Translations under genes and position numbers: made by a program | Shown: piece after piece, positions 1,583-16,549 of the stretch | How the letters are laid out: every line of letters starts with the position of its first letter | Position numbering within the stretch: the first letter of the stretch is position 1 | Source: Acidimicrobiales bacterium | GTDB taxonomy: Bacteria; Actinomycetota; Acidimicrobiia; Acidimicrobiales; Palsa-688 | Reading direction: 5' to 3' | Assembly (NCBI GenBank): GCA_965276825.1 | Contig: OZ255630.1 | Location: 2,812,411 to 2,836,410, forward strand | DNA: 24,000 bases | The notes under the pieces: model-generated | What the model was told of the DNA's origin: nothing | Databases searched by the model: none | Seen by the model: only the letters and a program-made list of their open reading frames with translations

Positions 1583-2386
1583 ATGTGTGGAGTTTGCGGA
1601 TGCGGTGAAGGTGACCAGGCCCGACTGACGTCGATGACCGGGAGAGCCGACGAACACGGCGGCCACGACCATGCCGCCGACGACCGTGCCGCCCACGACC
1701 ATGCCGGCCATGATCATGCCGGCCATGATCACGACGAGGGCAGGAACGTCGTGCTCGAGGACCGGGTGCTGGCCAAGAACGACGCCCTGGCGGCCGGCAA
1801 CCGCGGCTGGCTGGAGGAGCGGGGCGTGCTGGCCGTCAACCTGATGAGCTCGCCCGGCTCCGGCAAGACCACGCTGCTCGAGCGTACGATCCGCGACGTG
1901 GGCGGCGAGCTCTGCGTCTCGGTCATCGAGGGCGACCAGGAGACCCCGATCGACGCCGAACGGATCCGCGCCACCGGCCGGCCTGTCGTGCAGGTCAACA
2001 CCGGGTCCGGCTGCCATCTCGACGCCGCCATGGTCGAGCGGGCCATGGGCCTCATCGACCCGCCCACCGGCTCGGTCGTGTTCATCGAGAACGTGGGCAA
2101 CCTCGTCTGCCCGGCGCTCTTCGACCTGGGGGAGCGGTCCCGGGTGGTGATCATGTCGGTGACCGAGGGGGCCGACAAGCCGCTGAAATACCCGCAGATG
2201 TTCCACGGCGCCGATCTCGTCATCGTCAACAAAGCCGACCTCCTGCCGTACGTCGATTTCGACCTCTCGGCCTTCGGTGACGCCGTGCACAAGGTCAACC
2301 CCGGGGTGGCCATCCTGGTGCTGTCCGCCACGACAGGCGCGGGCGTGGCCGCGTGGTACCACGAGCTTCGTGCGTTGAGGGGTTGA
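1583..2386 (+). CDS. hypB: Hydrogenase nickel-incorporation GTPase HypB with His-rich tract
   Basis: ATG at 1583, 2 nt after the hypA stop. N-terminal MCGVCGC (CxxCGC high-affinity Ni site). His-rich HGGHDHAADDRAAHDHAGHDHAGHDHD at ~1649-1737. P-loop SSPGSGKTTLLE, ENVGNLVCPA and NKADL GTPase motifs. Confidence 0.92.
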   Translation: MCGVCGCGEGDQARLTSMTGRADEHGGHDHAADDRAAHDHAGHDHAGHDHDEGRNVVLEDRVLAKNDALAAGNRGWLEERGVLAVNLMSSPGSGKTTLLERTIRDVGGELCVSVIEGDQETPIDAERIRATGRPVVQVNTGSGCHLDAAMVERAMGLIDPPTGSVVFIENVGNLVCPALFDLGERSRVVIMSVTEGADKPLKYPQMFHGADLVIVNKADLLPYVDFDLSAFGDAVHKVNPGVAILVLSATTGAGVAAWYHELRALRG

Positions 2387-2459
2387 CATCAGCTCGCCGC
2401 AGGGTTAGACCCATTTGCGGGACTTCAGCTGCAGTTCCGAGAGCCGAGGGGGACGCCAG

Positions 2460-3515
2460 ATGCCGACCGAAGAGGCTATTCGGGCCGAGGACACACTGGT
2501 CCACGTGCTGTGGATCAACGCCGGTCTGAGCTGCGACGGTGACTCCGTCGCCCTCACGGCGGCCACGCAGCCGAGCATCGAGGAGATCGCGCTCGGCGCT
2601 CTCCCCGGGCTGCCCAAGGTGGCGGTGCACTGGCCGCTGATCGACTTCGAGTGCGGGCCGGCCGGGGGTGCCGATGACTTCCTGGAGTGGTTCTGGAAGG
2701 CCGACCGCGGCGAGCTCGACCCCTTCGTGCTCGTCGTGGAGGGGTCCATCCCCAACGAGAAGCTCCACGAGGAGGGCTACTGGAGTGGGTTCGGCAACGA
2801 TCCCACCACGGGTCAGCCCGTCACCACCAGCGAGTGGCTCGACCGCCTGGCGCCCAAGGCCCTGGCCATCCTGGCCGCGGGCACCTGCGCCACCTACGGC
2901 GGCATCCACGCCATGGCCGGCAACCCGACCGGGGCCATGGGCGTGCCCGACTACCTCGGCTGGTCGTGGAAGTCCAAGGCCGGGCTGCCCATCGTGTGCG
3001 TGCCGGGGTGCCCGGTCCAGCCCGACAACCTGTCCGAGACCATCACCTACCTGCTGTACCAGGCCACCGGCCAGGCGCCCATGATCCCCCTCGACGACGC
3101 CCTCAGGCCGACGTGGCTCTTCGGCGCCACCGTGCACGAGGGCTGCGACCGCGCCGGCTACTACGAGCAGGGCGACTTCGCCACCGAGTACGGATCGCCC
3201 AAGTGCATCGTCAAGCTCGGTTGCTGGGGACCCGTCGTCAAGTGCAACGTGCCCAAGCGCGGCTGGATCAACGGGGTGGGGGGCTGCCCCAACGTGGGCG
3301 GCATCTGCATCGGCTGCACCATGCCCGGCTTCCCCGACAAGTTCATGCCCTTCATGGACGAGCCGCCCGGCGGCCTCGTCTCCACCACCGTCTCCGGGGT
3401 GTACGGCTCGGCCATCCGCTCGCTGCGGAAGGTCACCCAGAAGACGATCGACAAGGAGCCGAAGTGGAGGAAGCCGGGGCGCACGCTCACCACCGGAGCG
3501 ACGCGCACCTGGTAG
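2460..3515 (+). CDS. hhyS: [NiFe]-hydrogenase small subunit, group 1h/5 type, no Tat signal
   Basis: 351 aa, ATG 2460 with GAGGGGGA 6-7 nt upstream. Fe-S cysteine pattern GLSCDGDS, GTCATYGG, VPGCPVQPDN, HEGCDRAGYY, GCWGPVVKCN, GGCPNVGGICIGCTMPGFPD. The N-terminus MPTEEAIRAEDTLVHVLWIN has no RRxFxK twin-arginine leader. Confidence 0.9.
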   Translation: MPTEEAIRAEDTLVHVLWINAGLSCDGDSVALTAATQPSIEEIALGALPGLPKVAVHWPLIDFECGPAGGADDFLEWFWKADRGELDPFVLVVEGSIPNEKLHEEGYWSGFGNDPTTGQPVTTSEWLDRLAPKALAILAAGTCATYGGIHAMAGNPTGAMGVPDYLGWSWKSKAGLPIVCVPGCPVQPDNLSETITYLLYQATGQAPMIPLDDALRPTWLFGATVHEGCDRAGYYEQGDFATEYGSPKCIVKLGCWGPVVKCNVPKRGWINGVGGCPNVGGICIGCTMPGFPDKFMPFMDEPPGGLVSTTVSGVYGSAIRSLRKVTQKTIDKEPKWRKPGRTLTTGATRTW

Positions 3516-3587
3516 GTGCAGACGCCGGGGCGCTCCGCCGCTCCGGCCCCCATCCCAGCCGGACCACCGACGCAGGAAAAAGGACCG

Positions 3588-5384
3588 ATGACCGCGACGC
3601 GCACCTCCCCCAAGAGCCGAGACGACAGCACGGGGTCCAACCTCGTCGACATGTCGTGGGACCCGATCACCCGCATCGTCGGCAGCCTCGGGATCTACAC
3701 CAAGATCGACTTCGACCAGCGGGTCGTGGCCGAGTGCCACAGCACGTCGTCGATCTTCCGCGGGTACTCGATCTTCATGAAGGGCAAGGACCCCCGCGAC
3801 GCCCACTTCATCACCAGCCGCATCTGCGGCATCTGCGGGGACAACCACGCCACCTGCTCCTGCTACGCCCAGAACATGGCCTACGGCGTCAAGCCGCCGC
3901 ACCTCGGTGAGTGGATCGTCAACCTCGGCGAGGCCGCCGAGTACATGTTCGACCACAACATCTACCAGGAGAACCTGGTCGGGGTGGACTACTGCGAGCG
4001 CATGGTGGGCGAGACCAACCCGGGCGTGCTCGAGCGGGCCAACACCACCGAGGCCCCCCACGCCGGCGAGCACGGCTACCGGACCATCGGCGACATCATG
4101 CGCTCGCTCAACCCCTTCAGCGGGGAGTTCTACCGGGAGGCGCTCCAGGTCAGCCGCTCCACCCGGGAGATGTTCTGCCTGATGGAGGGCCGGCACGTCC
4201 ACCCGTCCACCCTCTATCCCGGCGGGGTCGGCACGGTGGCCACCATCCAGCTGATGACCGACTACATCACCCGGCTGATGCGCTACGTCGAGTTCATGAA
4301 GAAGGTCGTCCCCATGCACGACGACCTCTTCGACTTCTTCTACCAGGCCCTCCCTGGCTACGAGCAGGTCGGCTTCCGGCGCACGCTGCTCGGGTGCTGG
4401 GGCGCATTCCAGGACCCCGAGGTCTGCAACTTCAAGTACCAGGACATGACCGAGTGGGGTCGCAAGATGTACGTGACCCCCGGCGTGGTGGTGGACGGCA
4501 AGCTCGTCACCACCGACCTCGTCGACATCAACCTGGGCATCCGGATCCTCCTCGGCAGCTCGTACTACGACGACTGGGAAGACCGGGAGATGTTCGTCAC
4601 CCGGGATCCTCTCGGCAACCCGGTCGACCGTCGCCACCCGTGGAACCAGCACACCAACCCCCGTCCCCAGAAGCGGGACATGGACGACAAGTACTCCTGG
4701 GTCATGTCCCCGCGGTGGTTCGACGGCAAGGACTACCTGGCCCTCGACACCGGGGGCGGCCCCATCGCCCGGCTGTGGACCACCGCCCTGGCCGGGCTGG
4801 TCGACATCGGCTACGTGAAGGCCACCGGGACCAGCGTGCAGATCAACCTGCCGAAGACGGCGCTCAAGGGCCCCGCCACCCTGGAGTGGAAGATCCCCGA
4901 GTGGAGCAACGCCATCGAGCGCAACCGGGCCAGGACCTACTTCCAGGCATACGCGGCGGCCTGCGCGCTGCACTTCGCCGAGAAGGCGCTGGAGGAGATC
5001 CGGGCCGGGCGGACCAAGACGTGGGAGAGCTTCGAGGTGCCCGAGGAAGGGGTGGGCTGCGGCTTCACCGAGGCGGTGCGCGGGGTGCTGTCGCACCACA
5101 TGGTCATCCGGGACGGCAAGATCGCCAACTACCACCCGTACCCGCCGACGCCGTGGAACGCCAGCCCTCGCGACAGCTACGGGACGCCGGGGCCCTACGA
5201 GGACGCCGTGCAGGGCACTCCGATCTTCGAGGAGAACGACCGGGAGCACTTCAAGGGCATCGACATCATGCGCACCGTGCGCAGCTTCGACCCCTGCCTG
5301 CCCTGTGGCGTGCACATGTACCTCGGCGAGGGCAAAAGCCTGGAGACGCTGCACTCGCCGACGCAGTCCGCCGGCACCGCGTGA
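3588..5384 (+). CDS. hhyL: [NiFe]-hydrogenase large (catalytic) subunit, group 1h/5 type
   Basis: 598 aa, ATG 3588 preceded by AGGAAAAAGGA. N-terminal metal-binding motif TSRICGICGDNH (~3819-3848). C-terminal SFDPCLPCGVH (~5289-5315) followed by a 22-aa extension, the substrate for the maturation protease. Confidence 0.95.
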   Translation: MTATRTSPKSRDDSTGSNLVDMSWDPITRIVGSLGIYTKIDFDQRVVAECHSTSSIFRGYSIFMKGKDPRDAHFITSRICGICGDNHATCSCYAQNMAYGVKPPHLGEWIVNLGEAAEYMFDHNIYQENLVGVDYCERMVGETNPGVLERANTTEAPHAGEHGYRTIGDIMRSLNPFSGEFYREALQVSRSTREMFCLMEGRHVHPSTLYPGGVGTVATIQLMTDYITRLMRYVEFMKKVVPMHDDLFDFFYQALPGYEQVGFRRTLLGCWGAFQDPEVCNFKYQDMTEWGRKMYVTPGVVVDGKLVTTDLVDINLGIRILLGSSYYDDWEDREMFVTRDPLGNPVDRRHPWNQHTNPRPQKRDMDDKYSWVMSPRWFDGKDYLALDTGGGPIARLWTTALAGLVDIGYVKATGTSVQINLPKTALKGPATLEWKIPEWSNAIERNRARTYFQAYAAACALHFAEKALEEIRAGRTKTWESFEVPEEGVGCGFTEAVRGVLSHHMVIRDGKIANYHPYPPTPWNASPRDSYGTPGPYEDAVQGTPIFEENDREHFKGIDIMRTVRSFDPCLPCGVHMYLGEGKSLETLHSPTQSAGTA

Positions 5385-6322
5385 CGGCGGCCGACGACCC
5401 CATCCCGGGCCCGGACCTGCGAGCGACGGGCGAGCGCATCGAGACGCTGCTCGAGGCGGCCTCGGCCGGGGGCGTCCTCGTGCGCGAGCGCTCCGAGGAG
5501 CTGGTGCGCCTCGTGGTGGACCTCTATGGCGCCGGCATCGAGCGGATCATGGAGATCCTTGACGACCGGGGGCGCCTCGACGACGAGGTGCTCGACGCGC
5601 TGGCCGGTGACGACCTGGTGGCCAGCCTGCTGCTGGTCCACGGGCTGCACCCCGAGGACGTCCCGGCACGGGTGGAGCGCGCCCTGGCCGGGGTGCGGCC
5701 CTACCTCGACTCCCACGGGGGCAACGTGGAGCTGCTCGGCATCACCGAGGAGGGCGTGGTCAAGCTTCGCCTGCTCGGCAGTTGTGACGGGTGCGCCTCG
5801 TCGTCGGCCACGTTGACCCTGGCCGTCGAGGGGGCGGTGCTGGAGGCCGCGCCCGAGGTGACCGGCATCGAGGTGGAGGCGCCGTCGGCCGCCCCCGGAG
5901 CGGTGCGCGCCGGGGAGCTCATCCCGCTGGAGACGCTCCGCGTCCGCCAGCCGGACGGCTCGAGCGGGCAGCTGGCGGACTGGCAGGCCGCCCCCGGCCT
6001 GGTCGACCTCGAGGCGGGTCAGGTCACCGGCGTGACCGTCGGCCCCACCGCGCTGGTCGCCTGCCGGATCGGTTCGGAGCTGTTCGCCTTCGCCGATGCC
6101 TGTGCGTCCTGCGGCGCCAGCCTGGCGGATGGCAAGGTCGAGCGGCGACTCGGGTCGGCCATCGGCGGTGGGGTGCTCCGCTGCCCGAGGTGCCACGCCC
6201 ACTACGACGTCCGCAACGCCGGCGCGGCCGTCGACGGTGGGGACACCCACCTCGACCCGGTGCCGCTGCTCACCCGCCACGGGGTGGTCGAGGTGGCCGT
6301 GCCGAGGCCGGTCAGGGTATGA
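5381..6322 (+). CDS. hhyE: HhyE-like putative Fe-S protein: NifU C-terminal-like domain fused to a Rieske-fold-like domain
   Basis: GTG 5381 overlaps the hhyL TGA (GTGA). Nfu/NifU_C-like segment VRPYLDSHGGNVELLGITEEGVVKLRLLGSCDGCASSSATLTLAVEGAVLEAAPEV. The C-terminal half has ACRIGSELFAFADACASCGASLADG...LRCPRCHAHYD, i.e. a Rieske-like spacing of two metal-binding boxes. Confidence 0.8.
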   Translation: MTAADDPIPGPDLRATGERIETLLEAASAGGVLVRERSEELVRLVVDLYGAGIERIMEILDDRGRLDDEVLDALAGDDLVASLLLVHGLHPEDVPARVERALAGVRPYLDSHGGNVELLGITEEGVVKLRLLGSCDGCASSSATLTLAVEGAVLEAAPEVTGIEVEAPSAAPGAVRAGELIPLETLRVRQPDGSSGQLADWQAAPGLVDLEAGQVTGVTVGPTALVACRIGSELFAFADACASCGASLADGKVERRLGSAIGGGVLRCPRCHAHYDVRNAGAAVDGGDTHLDPVPLLTRHGVVEVAVPRPVRV

Positions 6323-6993
6323 CCGCGCCCCGGCCCCCGGCGCCGGCCGCCGAGGCCGGGCCGCTGGCGGTGCTGCGACGCATCGCCGCCCAACGCCGTC
6401 CGCCCCCACCGGGCGAGCGCTGCGAGATGTGCGGCGTGGCCATCGCCGACGAGCACGGTCACGTCGTCAACACCGAGCAGCGCAGCCTGCTGTGCTCCTG
6501 CCGCCCGTGCTACCTGCTCTTCACCGCCGACGGTGCCGAGCTCAAGTTCAAGGCCGTCCCCGACCGCTACCTCCGCTTCGGCGACTTCCGCCTCGGCTCC
6601 GCGCAGTGGGACGAGCTGGAGATCCCTGTCGGACTGGCGTTCTTCTTCCGCAACTCCGACATGGACCGGATGGTGGCCTTCTACCCGGGACCCGCCGGGG
6701 CCACCGAGTCGGAGCTGGCCCTGTCGGCCTGGGACGCCGTGCTCGGCGCCAACCCCGAGCTGACCACCCTCCGATCCGACGTCGAGGCCCTCCTCATCCG
6801 GGCCGTCGACCAGGACCGCTCCGACTTCGACTGCTTCCTGGTCCCCATCGACCGGTGCTACGAGCTCGTCGGCCAGCTCCGCCAGGTCTGGCGCGGCTTC
6901 GACGGCGGCCAGGAGGCTCGTCGGTGCGTCGACGAGCTCTTCGACGACGTCAGGCGCCGGAGCCGCCCTGCGCCGTCGATGGTGGAGCGATGA
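6319..6993 (+). CDS. Hydrogenase-cluster conserved protein of unknown function with CxxC-x19-CxCxxC motif
   Basis: 224 aa. ATG 6319 overlaps the upstream TGA (ATGA). High GC3 in frame. Cysteine cluster CEMCGVAIADEHGHVVNTEQRSLLCSCRPC near the N-terminus. Position conserved within the hyp/hhy operon context. Confidence 0.75.
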   Translation: MTAPRPPAPAAEAGPLAVLRRIAAQRRPPPPGERCEMCGVAIADEHGHVVNTEQRSLLCSCRPCYLLFTADGAELKFKAVPDRYLRFGDFRLGSAQWDELEIPVGLAFFFRNSDMDRMVAFYPGPAGATESELALSAWDAVLGANPELTTLRSDVEALLIRAVDQDRSDFDCFLVPIDRCYELVGQLRQVWRGFDGGQEARRCVDELFDDVRRRSRPAPSMVER

Positions 6994-7679
6994 CCGAGCT
7001 GACCTTCTCCGTCGTCGACATCGTCCCCGATCAGTACGCGGCGTCGCCGATGCTGACCGCCAGGGTGCGCATCGAGGAGGGGACGCAGACCGTGGTGCAC
7101 GCCATCGCCCTGCGCTGCCAGGTGCGCATCTCGCCGCAGCGCCGCCCCTACGGCGCCCCCGAGGCCGAAGGGCTGGCCGACCTCTTCGGTGGGCGCGAGC
7201 GGTGGAGCACCACGCTCAAGCCGTTTCTCTGGATGCACACCACCGCCATGGTCAAGGGGTTCACCGGCAGTGTGGAGGTCGACCTTCCGCTGCCCTGCAC
7301 CTACGACTTCGAGGTGGCGGCGACCAAGTACCTCCACGCCCTGCGCGATGGCCACGTCCCGTTGTCACTGATGTTCAGCGGCACCGTGTTCACCCGCGGT
7401 GCGACCGACTTCCAGGTCGAGCAGATCCCCTGGCACAGCGACGTCGACCATCGGATGGCGGTGCAGGCGTGGCGCCAGGCCATGGACGTGTTCTTCCCCG
7501 ACAGCGGATGGATCCGCGTCCCGACGGCGACCCTGGACGCGCTGGCGCGGTTCAAGTCCGATCGTGGCCTGCCGACGTGGGAGGAGGCGTTCGCCGTGAT
7601 GGTCGAGCGCGCCGGGCGACCCGATCCCCGGGAGGTCATGGTCGGAGCCGACGACAACGGCGCCAGGCGGGCGCCGTGA
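6990..7679 (+). CDS. Hydrogenase-cluster conserved protein of unknown function
   Basis: 229 aa. ATG 6990 overlaps the upstream TGA (ATGA). Globular-looking composition (MTELTFSVVDIVPDQYAASPMLTARVRIEEG...). No motif recognised. Confidence 0.75.
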   Translation: MTELTFSVVDIVPDQYAASPMLTARVRIEEGTQTVVHAIALRCQVRISPQRRPYGAPEAEGLADLFGGRERWSTTLKPFLWMHTTAMVKGFTGSVEVDLPLPCTYDFEVAATKYLHALRDGHVPLSLMFSGTVFTRGATDFQVEQIPWHSDVDHRMAVQAWRQAMDVFFPDSGWIRVPTATLDALARFKSDRGLPTWEEAFAVMVERAGRPDPREVMVGADDNGARRAP

Positions 7680-9133
7680 ACCTCGAGCTGGCCAAGACGG
7701 TGGCCGACGCCGTGCTCTACGAGGGTTACCTGCTGTACCCGTACCGCTCCACCTCGTCCAAGAACCAGGTGCGATGGCAGTTCGGGGTCCTCGGGCCTCC
7801 CGGTTCCTCCGAGGCCGGGTTCGGCGAGGCGTCGGCCCTGCACGCCGAGTGCCTGGTGCGCCCAGGGCCCGACGCCCGGGTGACCGTGCTCCTGCGCTTC
7901 CTGCAACTCCAGGCCCGCGGTGTGGAGCGGGCCGACCCGGCCGACCCGGACGGGTTCACCGCCGTCTCGCACCTGCGCGTCGGCGACGCCGACCTGCTGG
8001 CGTGGGACGAGGCCGTCGAGGGCAGCGTCGAGCTCGGCCCCTACGAGCTCTCCGACCTGGCCGCCGGGCTGGACACCACCGCGGAGGTCGCCGGTGGGCG
8101 GGAGGTCGAGCCCGCGATCGCGCCCGACGGCCGCGTGGCGGGCCGCGTGGTCCGGCGTCGGTGGCCCCTCGTGGCCGCCTTCCACCTCGAGGCCGTCGAG
8201 CTCCCCGCCGACGGCGCCGTGCGCCTGGTCGTGCAGGTCGACAACGCGCACCCCTCCTGCGCCGCGGACCGGGACGAGGCCACCAGGGTCTCGTTCCTCG
8301 GGGCCCACCTGCTGCTGCAGGCGGGCGACGCCGAGTTCGTCTCGCTGCTCGAGCCTCCCGACGGTCTGGCCGCGGCTGCGGCCGCCTGCCGGAACGAGCG
8401 GTGCTGGCCCGTGCTGACCGGCGTCGAGGGCGACACCGACCTCGTGCTGGCCTCCCCCATCATCCTCTACGACTACCCGGCGGTCGCCCCCGAGAGCGCA
8501 GGATCCCTCTTCGACTCGACGGAGATCGACGAGATCCTCACCCTGCGGGTGATGACCCTGACCGACGAGGAGAAGGCCGCCGCCCGGGCCACCGATCCGG
8601 CCGCCGCGGCCATCATCGACCGCTGCGAGGCCATGTCGCCCGAGGACATGCAGCAGCTGCACGGCGTGCTGCGCGACCCGCGGGCCATCCCGAGCGACGG
8701 GCTCGCCGCCGCCGGGCTGCGCAGCGACGGGTTCGCGGGCGGTGGCTTCCCTGACGGCCTCGACATCCCGACCCTGACCACCCCCGGGGAGGAGCCTGTG
8801 GCCCCCGGACCCGAGGCGCCGTGGTGGGATCCAGGCGTCGACGCCTCGGTGTCGCCCACCTCCGACGTGGTGGTCATCGACGGTGTGGCGGTCGGCAAGG
8901 GCAGCCAGGTGCGGCTGCACCCGCGGCGCCAGGCCGACGCCCAGGACCTGTTCTTCGCCGGCCAGACAGCCAAGGTCTCGGCCGTCTACTTCGACGTCGA
9001 CGGGTCCACCCACCTCGCCGTGGTCCTGGTCGACGACCCGGCCGCCGACCTGCACGAGTGGTACGGCCGGTACCTCTACTTCGCGCCCGACGAGGTCGAG
9101 CCGCTCGCCTCGCCCACGCACCGACCCAGATGA
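7676..9133 (+). CDS. Hydrogenase-cluster conserved protein of unknown function (two domains joined by an Ala/Gly/Pro linker)
   Basis: 485 aa. GTG 7676 overlaps the upstream TGA (GTGA). N-terminal VNLELAKTVADAVLYEGYLLYPYRSTSSKNQVRWQFGVLGP. Low-complexity linker around 8690-8830. C-terminal ~95-aa domain VVVIDGVAVGKGSQVRLHPRRQADAQDLFFAGQTAKVSAVYFDVDGSTHLAVVLVDD. Confidence 0.75.
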   Translation: MNLELAKTVADAVLYEGYLLYPYRSTSSKNQVRWQFGVLGPPGSSEAGFGEASALHAECLVRPGPDARVTVLLRFLQLQARGVERADPADPDGFTAVSHLRVGDADLLAWDEAVEGSVELGPYELSDLAAGLDTTAEVAGGREVEPAIAPDGRVAGRVVRRRWPLVAAFHLEAVELPADGAVRLVVQVDNAHPSCAADRDEATRVSFLGAHLLLQAGDAEFVSLLEPPDGLAAAAAACRNERCWPVLTGVEGDTDLVLASPIILYDYPAVAPESAGSLFDSTEIDEILTLRVMTLTDEEKAAARATDPAAAAIIDRCEAMSPEDMQQLHGVLRDPRAIPSDGLAAAGLRSDGFAGGGFPDGLDIPTLTTPGEEPVAPGPEAPWWDPGVDASVSPTSDVVVIDGVAVGKGSQVRLHPRRQADAQDLFFAGQTAKVSAVYFDVDGSTHLAVVLVDDPAADLHEWYGRYLYFAPDEVEPLASPTHRPR

Positions 9134-9158
9134 CGAGACGACAAGAGAGAGGAATGCC

Positions 9159-9278
9159 ATGCGAGCCATCGGCAGGTTGACCACGGTAGGGCTGCTCATC
9201 GCGATGGGGGTGGCCGCCTCCTTCGGCTGGAAGTCGCGCGGTGACCTCCAGCGCTACCTCAAGATGCGCAGCATGTGA
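9159..9278 (+). CDS. 39-aa single-pass membrane micro-protein
   Basis: ATG 9159 with GAGAGGA 6 nt upstream. MRAIGRLTTVGLLIAMGVAASFGWKSRGDLQRYLKMRSM has one hydrophobic helix followed by a basic tail. Its TGA overlaps the GTG of the protease gene (GTGA). Confidence 0.5.
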   Translation: MRAIGRLTTVGLLIAMGVAASFGWKSRGDLQRYLKMRSM

Positions 9279-9814
9279 CGGCGTCGGTGCACCCGTCGCG
9301 GACCCTGGTCGCCGGCGTCGGGAACATCTTCCTGAGCGACGACGGCTTCGGGTCCGAGGTGGCCCGACGTCTGTCCGGTTGCGCGGTGCCACCCGGTGTC
9401 AGCGTGACCGACTACGGCATCCGGGGCACCCACCTGGCCTACGACCTGCTGGCGGGCTACGACGCCCTGGTCCTCGTCGACACGGTCCCCGCCCGGGGGG
9501 AGGCCGGCCGCCTGCACGTCATCCAGGTCGAGGCCGACGACGTCGACGGCTCGGCCTTCGACCCCCACGGGATGGACCCCAACTCGATGCTGGCCAGCCT
9601 GCGCTCGCTCGGCGGGGTCCCCCCGCCGACCGTCGTCGTCGGCTGCGAGCCCGCCGTGCTCGACGAGGGCATCGGGCTCTCACCCGAGGTGAGCGACGCC
9701 GTCGGGCTCGCCGTCACCACGGTGCTCCGGCTGGTCGGCGCACCATCACCCGCACCGGGGACGATCCCCGGGAGAGGAGGACCGACATGTGCCTCGGCAT
9801 CCCCGGTCGAGTGA
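9275..9814 (+). CDS. Hydrogenase maturation endopeptidase (HyaD/HybD/HupD family)
   Basis: 179 aa. LVAGVGNIFLSDDGFGSEVA (GxGNxxxxDDGxG), LVLVD and FDPHGM supply the conserved Asp/Asp/His metal ligands of the family. The partner large subunit has a C-terminal extension. Confidence 0.85.
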   Translation: MTASVHPSRTLVAGVGNIFLSDDGFGSEVARRLSGCAVPPGVSVTDYGIRGTHLAYDLLAGYDALVLVDTVPARGEAGRLHVIQVEADDVDGSAFDPHGMDPNSMLASLRSLGGVPPPTVVVGCEPAVLDEGIGLSPEVSDAVGLAVTTVLRLVGAPSPAPGTIPGRGGPTCASASPVE

Positions 9815-10044
9815 CCGAGCTGGTCGCCGGCTACCACGACCAGATCGCCATGGTCGACGTGGTCGGGGCCACCCGCCAGATCAACGTCGGCATGCTGGAG
9901 CAGCCCGTCAGGCCGGGCGACTGGGTGATGATCCACCTCGGCTTCGCCGTGGAGGTGGTCGACCAGGCCGAGGCCGAGCGGGCCCTCTCCGGCCTCGAGA
10001 TGATGGGCCGTCCGAGACGGGACGAGCCCCAGGCCAGCGTGTGA
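9787..10044 (+). CDS. hypC: Hydrogenase assembly chaperone HypC/HupF family, copy 1
   Basis: 85 aa. ATG 9787 preceded by GGGAGAGGAGGA. N-terminal MCLGIPGRV with the essential Cys2. Overlaps the protease gene 3' end by 28 nt. Confidence 0.85.
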   Translation: MCLGIPGRVTELVAGYHDQIAMVDVVGATRQINVGMLEQPVRPGDWVMIHLGFAVEVVDQAEAERALSGLEMMGRPRRDEPQASV

Positions 10045-10820
10045 GCGCGCCCGCTGGCTCGATCCGCCCCTCCCCCCCGGCCGGCGACGTGCTCTTCGCC
10101 CGCTACGCCTACCCACCCAACCAGCTGGGCTACTGCGGACCCGGCGACGGGCGCGAGCTGCTCGAGCTGGCCGCGGGGGTCGGTGACGACGACGTCGCGG
10201 CGCGGGCCCCCCGCTTCGACGGGGCCTGGCCGTACCTCGAGGTCATCGCCTCGTCGACGGGCATCGACGACCCGCTCGACCCTCGCGTGGTGGAGGCCTA
10301 CTGGCTGGGCAGCGACCTGCTCGACGCCGTCGACGCGCGCGCATTCGCCGACATGGCCCGGCGAGCGTTTGCCGGCCAGGTCGGCGCGGAGTGGCACTGC
10401 CTCGACCCCTCCCAGCCGGTGCCGCCGACCCCGCACCACAGCTTCCACGTCCTCGCCATCTATCCGTGGATGGGCCTGCTCAGGTCGGGTCGGGGGGGAC
10501 CCGCCCTCACCGTCCTCGACCGGTGCCGCATCCGCTGGGGCCAGATCGTGACCGTCGGCCGGGAGCACGTGGAGGTGCGGAGCCAGCCCCTCACCTGGGA
10601 CGGACAGGTGCTCGGTCTGGGCGAGGAGCAGGTCGAGACGGCGCGGTGGGCCGACGCCGGCCGGTCGCTCTCGGCGCCAGTGGCGCCCGGTGAGTGGGTG
10701 TCGCTGCACTGGGACTGGGTGTGCGACCGGCTGACCCCGACCCAGCTCGACCATCTGCGCCACTTCACCGCCCGCCAGCTCGACCTGACCAACCGGACCG
10801 TGGCCACCGACCCCCGATGA
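10041..10820 (+). CDS. Hydrogenase-cluster conserved protein of unknown function
   Basis: 259 aa. GTG 10041 overlaps the hypC TGA (GTGA). FARYAYPPNQLGYCGPGDGRELLELAAG...HHSFHVLAIYPWMGLL...WVSLHWDWVCDRL. High GC3. No catalytic motif recognised. Confidence 0.7.
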   Translation: MSAPAGSIRPSPPAGDVLFARYAYPPNQLGYCGPGDGRELLELAAGVGDDDVAARAPRFDGAWPYLEVIASSTGIDDPLDPRVVEAYWLGSDLLDAVDARAFADMARRAFAGQVGAEWHCLDPSQPVPPTPHHSFHVLAIYPWMGLLRSGRGGPALTVLDRCRIRWGQIVTVGREHVEVRSQPLTWDGQVLGLGEEQVETARWADAGRSLSAPVAPGEWVSLHWDWVCDRLTPTQLDHLRHFTARQLDLTNRTVATDPR

Positions 10821-16090: not shown

Positions 16091-16549
16091 GTGAGCGTCG
16101 TGTACGAGTGGCGTGGGGGGTTGGGCAACCTGGAGCTCGAGGCGCTGCACGCCGAGGGGTTCGGGCACGGGCTCTCCGATTTCGACTGGACGGCCAGGCT
16201 GGAGCGGCACAGCCTGGGATGGGTGTGCGCCCGGCGGGATGGCACGCTGATCGGGTTCGTCAACGTCGTGTGGGACGGTGGGAGCCACGCCTTCATCTTG
16301 GACACCCTGGTCGCCGCCGGCGACCGGCACTGCGGGGTGGGCACCGGCGTGGTGTCAGTTGCTGTGCGGGAGGCGGCTGCGGCGGGATGTGAGTGGCTGC
16401 ACGTGGACTTCGAGGAGCATCTCCGGGCGTTCTACCTCGAGTCCTGCCGGTTCACGCCGACTGAGGCCGGGCTGATCCGCCTGGATCGCGCCGGCGCGGA
16501 TCACGCGGGCCGCGGCGGGACCAGCGCGGCCGTGGGCCTCGGCGACTGA
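16091..16549 (+). CDS. GNAT-family N-acetyltransferase
   Basis: 152 aa, GTG start. GWVCARRDGTLIGFVNVVWDGGSHAFILDTLVAAGDRHCGVGTGVVSVAVREAAAAGCEWLHVDFEEHLRAFYLE matches the GNAT beta4-alpha3 acetyl-CoA-binding core. Confidence 0.75.
   Translation: MSVVYEWRGGLGNLELEALHAEGFGHGLSDFDWTARLERHSLGWVCARRDGTLIGFVNVVWDGGSHAFILDTLVAAGDRHCGVGTGVVSVAVREAAAAGCEWLHVDFEEHLRAFYLESCRFTPTEAGLIRLDRAGADHAGRGGTSAAVGLGD

Follow-up and report, generated by a model that had tools for sequence, protein, structure and literature searches.

Group 1h [NiFe]-hydrogenase operons are known to carry conserved hypothetical proteins, which were named hhaABC in one report (PMC6776052) and listed as 'conserved hypothetical proteins (HP)' in another (PMC5900883). 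The closest described set is found on plasmid pHG1 of Cupriavidus necator H16 (PHG066-PHG070), where the gene order is small subunit, large subunit, NifU-like, DUF5947, DUF6084, ~480-amino-acid (aa) protein, protease and hyp genes, and where NCBI names the accessory genes 'NifU family', 'DUF5947 family', 'DUF6084 family' and 'hypothetical protein'. By position, PHG066-PHG070 are taken here to correspond to MSMEG_2718-2715 of Mycobacterium smegmatis and to hhaABC. MSMEG_2717/PHG067 has been described as the 'proposed electron acceptor' (PMC6883350), and our literature search yielded no study of function or structure for the genes that encode the DUF5947, DUF6084 and ~480-aa proteins. Here, we analysed a window of 24,000 nucleotides (nt) from an Acidimicrobiales bacterium (GCA_965276825.1, contig OZ255630.1, positions 2,812,411 to 2,836,410; GC ~70%), which carries a complete group 1h locus on its + strand. 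Between the large-subunit gene hhyL and the maturation endopeptidase gene hupD lies an accessory block composed of a HhyE-like gene, three middle genes (DUF5947, DUF6084 and a 485-aa gene) and a micro-protein gene. The three middle genes are equivalent to PHG067 (MSMEG_2717), PHG068 and PHG069, respectively. A first-pass annotation of this DNA had put them forward as an undescribed module; since two of them belong to Pfam families DUF5947 and DUF6084 and the set is PHG067-069, the gene set is known already, and the window block is an ordinary member of a known, uncharacterised set. New here are the gene fusions, the invariant Cys/His cluster of DUF5947, the conservation of the micro-protein and the rate at which the block diverges. 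We propose, with moderate confidence, that the HhyE-like protein, the three middle proteins and the micro-protein form a module, specific to 1h enzymes, for assembly and maturation in concert with HupD. The genes and signals concerned are as follows.

2415..3515, + strand: hhyS, group 1h [NiFe]-hydrogenase small subunit (Pfam Oxidored_q6, NiFe_hyd_SSU_C)
3516..5384, + strand: hhyL, group 1h [NiFe]-hydrogenase large subunit (Pfam NiFeSe_Hases)
5381..6322, + strand: HhyE-like gene, 313 aa (Pfam NifU at 1.5e-20, Rieske at 1.4e-4)
6319..6993, + strand: DUF5947 gene, 224 aa (Pfam PF19372, 243.9 bits against a cut-off of 25, profile positions 1-176 of 177)
6990..7679, + strand: DUF6084 gene, 229 aa (Pfam PF19562, 299.2 bits against a cut-off of 25, profile positions 1-209 of 213)
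7676..9133, + strand: 485-aa gene (no Pfam or NCBIfam family)
9146..9152, + strand: Shine-Dalgarno-like AGAGAGG, 6 nt upstream of the micro-protein ATG
9159..9278, + strand: micro-protein DUF6893, 39 aa (Pfam PF21833, 35.9 bits against a cut-off of 24.6)
9275..9814, + strand: hupD-type maturation endopeptidase, 179 aa (Pfam HycI; TIGR00072 at 2.6e-35)

The translated HhyL holds both 1h signatures, L1 (TSRICGICGDNH) and L2 (SFDPCLPCGVH), when compared with the large-subunit motifs quoted in PMC5364354, and it is 72-84% identical to 13 plasmid-borne 1h large subunits. The true start of hhyS is probably Met16 (~2460) and that of hhyL probably lies downstream of 3516; no twin-arginine signal is visible in the sequence of the window HhyS. 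The HhyE-like protein consists of an N-terminal helical region, a NifU-like domain with a C-x2-C motif and a Rieske-like C-terminal domain with four Cys. Directly downstream of the 1h-type hhyS-hhyL pair, the block follows the order NifU-like, DUF5947, DUF6084, ~480-aa protein and endopeptidase. The pHG1 locus shows the same 4- and 8-nt overlaps, and tblastn related the two with E-values of 1e-46, 4e-54 and 3e-73. However, its NifU-like protein is short (192 aa) and has no Rieske-like domain, and it has no 39-aa micro-protein, so that the homologue of the 485-aa gene overlaps the protease gene directly. RefSeq calls the 1h small-subunit genes of pHG1 and of Methylocystis parvus pMpar-2 (L081 4208-5263 and L082 4302-5381) 'hydrogenase expression protein HypE'; because these genes match the window HhyS at 66-67% identity, the label looks like a misannotation.

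The distribution of the block was followed in the best 80 of at least 580 genome loci with relatives of the 485-aa protein (one genome scanned per species; Actinomycetota and one Sericytochromatia metagenome-assembled genome, MAG) and in 72,556 plasmids. All 80 genome loci were colinear on one strand, with the block between the structural genes and hupD/hyp in every case. Where enough upstream DNA was available, the upstream genes were always present (DUF6084 in 76/76, DUF5947 in 75/75, HhyE in 73/73, HhyL in 63/63 and HhyS in 62/62 loci), and hupD followed within 1.5 kb downstream of the 485-aa gene in 79/80 loci. Among the plasmids, HhyL, DUF5947 and the 485-aa protein occurred in the same 13 records and DUF6084 in 11 of these 13; the copies were single per record and adjoined the hydrogenase genes, and the block was found only alongside a 1h large subunit. 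The same gene order was found in Betaproteobacteria (C. necator pHG1) and Alphaproteobacteria (M. parvus pMpar-2). The sole exception was S. cattleyicolor pSCAT (L083, NC_016113.1 555000-575000), in which the 485-aa gene precedes hhyS and a DUF6084 gene could not be detected within 10 kb; this locus also has a short HhyE and a divergent DUF5947 (35% identity). No copy away from a 1h locus was found among the plasmids and these 80 genome loci. These results uphold the earlier view that the block is dedicated to this hydrogenase class, for homologues were not found routinely away from hydrogenase genes. The three families are large: grouping at 90% identity gave at least 7898 (485-aa protein), 3604 and at least 7804 clusters, and grouping at 50% identity left 4559 representatives of the 485-aa protein.

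The strongest indication of what the block does came from gene fusions, which were surveyed in the ten longest proteins among the best 150 of the 4559 representatives of the 485-aa family. The 485-aa protein was fused in frame to a HycI/HupD protease in seven separate 50%-identity clusters, and DUF6084 was fused N-terminally to the 485-aa protein in a 765-aa protein (P0485; a cluster of 28 members). The fusions recur with identical length in independent data sets, several protease fusions having two to four members and the recurring ones including an NCBI Acidimicrobiaceae MAG protein, and their sequences show clean, natural linkers. Contigs confirmed both types, the 485-aa::protease fusion on L084 and the DUF6084::485-aa fusion on its own contigs as well. 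In addition, a 375-aa HhyE-like::DUF5947 fusion was found on two independent contigs (L085/L086), where it precedes the DUF6084::485-aa gene; it has lost the NifU CxxC and has retained the DUF5947 Cys/His cluster. Each adjacent pair from HhyE to HupD is thus fused somewhere, DUF5947/DUF6084 excepted. Fusions are a classical sign of proteins acting together, and the fusion of the 485-aa protein to a HupD-type protease ties the block to an enzyme that acts in maturation only. Since such a protease is an unlikely permanent partner of an electron-transfer subunit, the fusions favour assembly over electron transfer among the functions that the first-pass annotation had listed as candidates. Furthermore, the median identity to orthologues was 53-60% for the block proteins, 56% for HupD and 52% for HypF, compared to 86% for HhyS, measured in 63 loci, and for HhyL. 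The divergence of the block therefore matches that of HupD and HypF and not that of the two catalytic subunits, which is consistent with its tie to maturation.

Direct reading of the sequence located all five 4-nt overlaps that had been claimed for the block: GTGA at 5381-5384 (hhyL stop/HhyE-like start), ATGA at 6319-6322 (HhyE-like/DUF5947), ATGA at 6990-6993 (DUF5947/DUF6084), GTGA at 7676-7679 (DUF6084/485-aa) and GTGA at 9275-9278 (micro-protein/hupD). The gene lengths of 224, 229 and 485 aa were also correct, and the three middle genes are real, being strongly coding (GC content at third codon positions, GC3, of 0.93, 0.93 and 0.95 versus ~0.50 at second positions). The chain is not unbroken, however, since the 485-aa gene stops at 9133 and the 39-aa gene begins at 9159; the AGAGAGG element sits in this 25-nt spacer, the only non-overlapping junction of the chain in the window. 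The 4-nt motif by itself is weak evidence of coupling, because 58-69% of the TGA triplets in the window have a preceding base that creates an overlapping start codon. The overlaps become meaningful because the starts match the N-termini of homologues and the overlaps persist in orthologous loci. DUF6084 profile positions 1-209 fall on residues 1-209, with position 1 on residue 1, and the alignment of the 485-aa family begins at 'M.L.LA+TVADAVLYEGY'; the overlap was kept in 52/75 loci for HhyE/DUF5947, in 59/76 for DUF5947/DUF6084 and in 63/79 for DUF6084/485-aa. These counts bear out the proposed translational coupling of the middle genes. The hhyL/HhyE overlap occurred in just 8/72 loci, most of which have gaps of 3-10 nt. 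Coupling is therefore conserved inside the accessory block and not between the block and the catalytic subunit, and the fixed stoichiometry with the hydrogenase that had been read from the overlaps is not supported. The conserved coupled chain starts with the HhyE-like gene, and its unit is HhyE, DUF5947, DUF6084, the 485-aa protein and often the micro-protein. A scan for promoters and terminators gave nothing inside the block, such a scan being uninformative for a GC-rich actinobacterium.

The three middle proteins had been said to show no assignable motif or fold. For DUF5947 the motif part of this statement fails. Its N-terminal region holds an invariant cluster, C-x2-C-x7-H-x-H-x10-C-x-C-x2-C, plus Cys180; the ligand residues in the window protein are C35, C38, H46, H48, C59, C61 and C64, together with C180. 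Alignments showed that the cluster is kept in Cupriavidus, Methylocystis and a fusion protein, and its pattern is that of a Cys5His2 zinc-ribbon or rubredoxin-like region, a putative metal site. The NifU C-x2-C was lost or altered in the HhyE-like domains of L086 (3035-4162) and L084 (6112-6657). Because the DUF5947 cluster is kept while the HhyE-like C-x2-C is lost or altered, comparison of the sequences argues that the DUF5947 site, and not the NifU site, is indispensable. The other part of the statement stands, as no known fold relative was found. The AlphaFold2 (AF2) model (mean predicted local distance difference test score 87.9) places an alpha/beta domain after the cluster; Foldseek against the PDB returned no significant match (best E-value 0.08), with weak zinc-finger/zinc-ribbon hints (probability 0.28-0.47), and a sequence search against all PDB chains gave at best unusable hits to TFIIIA zinc fingers (E=0.07). 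A rubredoxin of the HoxR-HupI type was considered and rejected: rubredoxins have two CxxCG-type knuckles ~29 residues apart, the motif of DUF5947 is the one given above, and no rubredoxin family appeared in Pfam/NCBIfam scans. A ferredoxin-type carrier was likewise rejected, with no Fer2/Fer4-type domain in the same scans and no fold match.

DUF6084 and the 485-aa protein present a different picture. No conserved Cys/His cluster was seen in the DUF6084 alignment, no redox-cofactor motif is conserved in the alignments of either protein, and hydropathy revealed no transmembrane helix in any of the three middle proteins. The AF2 model of the 485-aa protein comprises a conserved N-terminal segment (1-40), a confident beta-sandwich (54-260), an invariant segment (261-295), helices to ~345, a variable linker and an SH3-like C-terminal domain (398-476). 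Segments 1-40 and 261-295 are almost invariant across phyla yet modelled with low confidence, and they may become ordered only on a partner. The C-terminal domain resembles the PetP-type SH3-like subunits (PDB 7r0w_V, 2n5u) with a template modelling (TM) score of 0.77 (target-normalised) and a probability of 1.0; however, the E-value is just 0.04 and the identity 14%, and BAH domains and phage proteins match too. Because SH3-like barrels are very common and other proteins match, no functional inference from this model-based likeness is safe. The sole significant fold match of the 485-aa model was DISARM DrmA (PDB 7s9v_A; E=1.1e-5), but the TM scores (0.21/0.09), root-mean-square deviation (19 A) and identity (15%) led us to reject it; the helicase domain was not found in the Pfam scan, and the resemblance would be at most a local likeness of beta domains. 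A similarity of residues 279-329 to Phage_TAC_7 was also rejected at 19.9 bits (cut-off 25): the weak match recurs in 49/51 members, which are close relatives and not independent, and the viral fold library gave no support, Foldseek of the model returning small SH3-like domains only. Searches of the three middle proteins against solved structures, with single sequences and family profiles, found no sequence relative, the other PDB matches (3C-like protease, proline racemase) being by chance only. Chaperones of the HyaE/HoxO, HyaF/HoxQ/HupH and HypC/HupF types were tried for DUF6084 and the 485-aa protein and dropped, as Pfam/NCBIfam gave no match for any of the three middle proteins and the chaperone profiles matched none of 51 family members at E<=1. 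Comparison of the three families with hhalign gave probabilities below 1%, so they are not paralogues of one another.

The micro-protein consists of one hydrophobic helix (hydropathy maximum 1.63) followed by a basic tail with the consensus RSIPD..RYLK.R.M, the overall consensus being M..G..[hydrophobic helix]..RSIPD..RYLK.R.M. Its gene lies directly after the 485-aa gene in 77/79 loci and overlaps it by 4 nt in 29/60; the length is exactly 39 aa in 59/60 loci. It is absent from the Cupriavidus and Methylocystis loci. From these features, the micro-protein is a candidate membrane anchor of the module. Two tandem micro-protein genes lie between the 485-aa gene and hupD at L036 (11452-11722) and L076 (11428-11698). 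In the lineages with fused genes (L084 9935-10565; L085 4252-4873), a 34-aa micro-protein gene comes after the protease gene and is followed by a YceI-family gene. YceI is a family of polyisoprenoid/quinone-binding proteins, and this neighbour is a possible link to quinone coupling.

The assembly and maturation reading is favoured by the fusions, the operon position, the divergence, the domain content, the literature and the lack of redox features. According to this reading, termination-reinitiation at the 4-nt overlaps would keep the five proteins in fixed ratios, and the proteins would form a transient complex, in which HhyE (NifU-like) and DUF5947 (Cys5His2 site) would handle a metal or Fe-S cluster and DUF6084 and the 485-aa protein would serve as scaffold or chaperone for the immature large and/or small subunit. 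The subunit or subunits would be held at the stage where HhyL loses its C-terminal tail to HupD and associates with the small subunit, and in actinobacteria the micro-protein would set the complex at the membrane; the finished catalytic core would not include the module. We infer that a complex forms, which protein is its client and which chemical step it serves; the data themselves show real genes, conserved coupling, strict co-occurrence with 1h loci, the fusions and a conserved metal-ligand motif. Schafer et al. (2013, 2016) reportedly purified and crystallised the C. necator enzyme with no subunits besides the small and the large one. Previous work showed that deletion of hhyE abolishes activity and that an artificial acceptor does not rescue it, and an assembly role was considered possible (PMC6883350). 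In keeping with such a role, the published listing for the active native-gel band of M. smegmatis names HhyS and HhyL alone. A parallel is offered by the hydrogenase-specific sets of group 1d, hyaDEF in Escherichia coli and hoxMLOQRTV in Ralstonia eutropha, which stand beside an endopeptidase gene and likewise combine a small Cys-rich metal protein with cofactor-free proteins (protease, subunit chaperones, rubredoxin); a rubredoxin-type protein aids aerobic maturation (cited in PMC6883350). In contrast to these sets, proofreading of twin-arginine translocation cannot be the task of the block, because group 1h small subunits have no such signal. The likeness to group 1d is thus one of working, by analogy, and not of family membership, as no sequence or fold relation to the block was detected.

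Several points weigh against this reading. No homology or fold similarity was found between the three middle proteins and HypA-F, HyaE/F or HoxL/O/Q/R/T/V, and the assembly role of these three proteins is a computational proposal. A protease fusion points to functional linkage and does not reveal the nature of the step, and it is not obvious why maturation should need a micro-protein in the membrane. The table that describes the native-gel band covers 'selected' proteins only. Finally, and this holds for the tether model below as well, the module cannot be indispensable for every 1h hydrogenase, because the 1h enzyme of Methylacidiphilum is active although its cluster, hhyS-hhyL-hupD, contains no hhyE.

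The main alternative, which we regard as unlikely, is that the block is an electron-output and membrane-tether module, in which electrons would leave the distal cluster of HhyS by way of HhyE and the DUF5947 metal site, an adaptor would be formed by DUF6084 together with the 485-aa protein, and the micro-protein would anchor the assembly near menaquinone. Hhy is membrane-associated and menaquinone-linked with no known anchor or cytochrome b, the acceptor role proposed for PHG067/MSMEG_2717 and the invariant cluster of DUF5947 fit such a route, and so do the resemblance of the 485-aa C-terminal domain to PetP, a small peripheral subunit of cytochrome b6f, and translational coupling, which suits a multi-subunit complex. 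The transmembrane micro-protein that follows the block in the actinobacterial-type loci and is missing in Cupriavidus, whose 1h enzyme is soluble, would agree too. Against a tether stand the repeated fusion of the 485-aa protein to the maturation protease, the loss of the NifU-like CxxC in the HhyE::DUF5947 lineage, the lack of any cofactor motif, transmembrane or quinone-site feature in DUF6084 and the 485-aa protein, the divergence of the block at the speed of maturation factors, the lack of any report of the block proteins in active enzyme preparations and the failure of the artificial acceptor to replace HhyE. HucM, the scaffold and accessory protein of another atmospheric-H2 oxidiser, reportedly explains the membrane association and quinone coupling of the group 2a hydrogenase Huc without a cytochrome b. 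HucM is reported to remain in the purified complex as a stable subunit (PMC10017518), a contrast to the block proteins, which no active Hhy preparation is reported to contain. The assembly and tether models are not fully exclusive of each other.

A second alternative, which we consider improbable, is that the block provides ongoing O2-protection or repair of the Fe-S clusters or the Ni-Fe site of an enzyme that has to survive for weeks in starving cells exposed to air. To our knowledge, group 2a Huc has only HucE, a relative of HhyE, and none of the rest of the block, although it is equally O2-insensitive. Fusion to an endopeptidase, which acts once, would also be left unexplained, and no similarity to known repair proteins was found with Pfam, NCBIfam or Foldseek. 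In favour of repair are the pairing of a NifU-like domain with a Cys/His protein, the restriction of the block to an O2-insensitive, persistence-phase enzyme and the upregulation of hhaABC with hhyLS under nutrient limitation in Thermomicrobium roseum (PMC6776052). The last alternative, that the coupling reflects incidental operon compaction in GC-rich actinobacteria and that the genes have unrelated or dispensable roles, could appeal to an overlap motif expected at more than half of TGA stops, to the pSCAT lineage, which lacks DUF6084 and has moved the 485-aa gene, and to Methylacidiphilum, which manages without hhyE, but it is hardly credible and largely refuted already by the conservation of order and overlaps across Actinomycetota, Alpha- and Betaproteobacteria and a Sericytochromatia MAG, by the size and good conservation of the families and by the multiple independent fusions.

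The window also carries other genes of the locus, among them the following.

1457-2386, + strand: HypB-like GTPase (CobW/HypB-type), upstream of hhyS
9789-10820, + strand: DUF6390 gene, directly after hupD

The genes hypF, hypD and hypE are located after the DUF6390 gene; hypA and hypC were not identified among the window open reading frames (ORFs) scanned. DUF6390 is another conserved unknown, which most of the 80 loci have within 10 kb, and together with DUF6893 it contradicts the first-pass description of an otherwise fully explained operon. The start of the DUF6390 gene probably lies near 10070, because the N-terminal 96 residues of its longest ORF are Arg/Pro-rich and outside the Pfam match and this ORF has a lower GC3 (0.81); this start would leave ~250 nt unexplained after hupD. 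A fragment of a DeoR-type regulator (680-1168, +) lies upstream of hhyS, and a GNAT acetyltransferase gene (16091-16549) follows hypE. An opposite-strand ORF of 1019 aa over hhyS/hhyL (2295-5354, -) is almost certainly a shadow ORF typical of GC-rich DNA and not a gene.

Group 1h hydrogenases account for a major share of the atmospheric H2 taken up by soils, and they are under development as air-stable catalysts. In each of their operons, the block stands out as the unexplored part. It bears on two questions, how the enzyme is assembled in air and by which route it reaches the respiratory chain. A broader and tentative proposal, somewhat doubtful in our view, is that HhyE, DUF5947, DUF6084, the 485-aa protein, the micro-protein and HupD are one membrane-docked 'maturation and docking' machine for atmospheric-H2 hydrogenases. 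If true, this machine would comprise a new Cys5His2 metal site and two folds that lack a solved relative, and it would complete the enzyme in air and deliver it to the membrane, which would explain both the assembly of Hhy under oxygen and its membrane association in the absence of an annotated anchor. With the fusions, the invariant metal motif and the overlooked 39-aa membrane protein, these 'conserved hypotheticals' can now be addressed by specific experiments, and the heterologous production of active 1h enzyme probably depends on the block.

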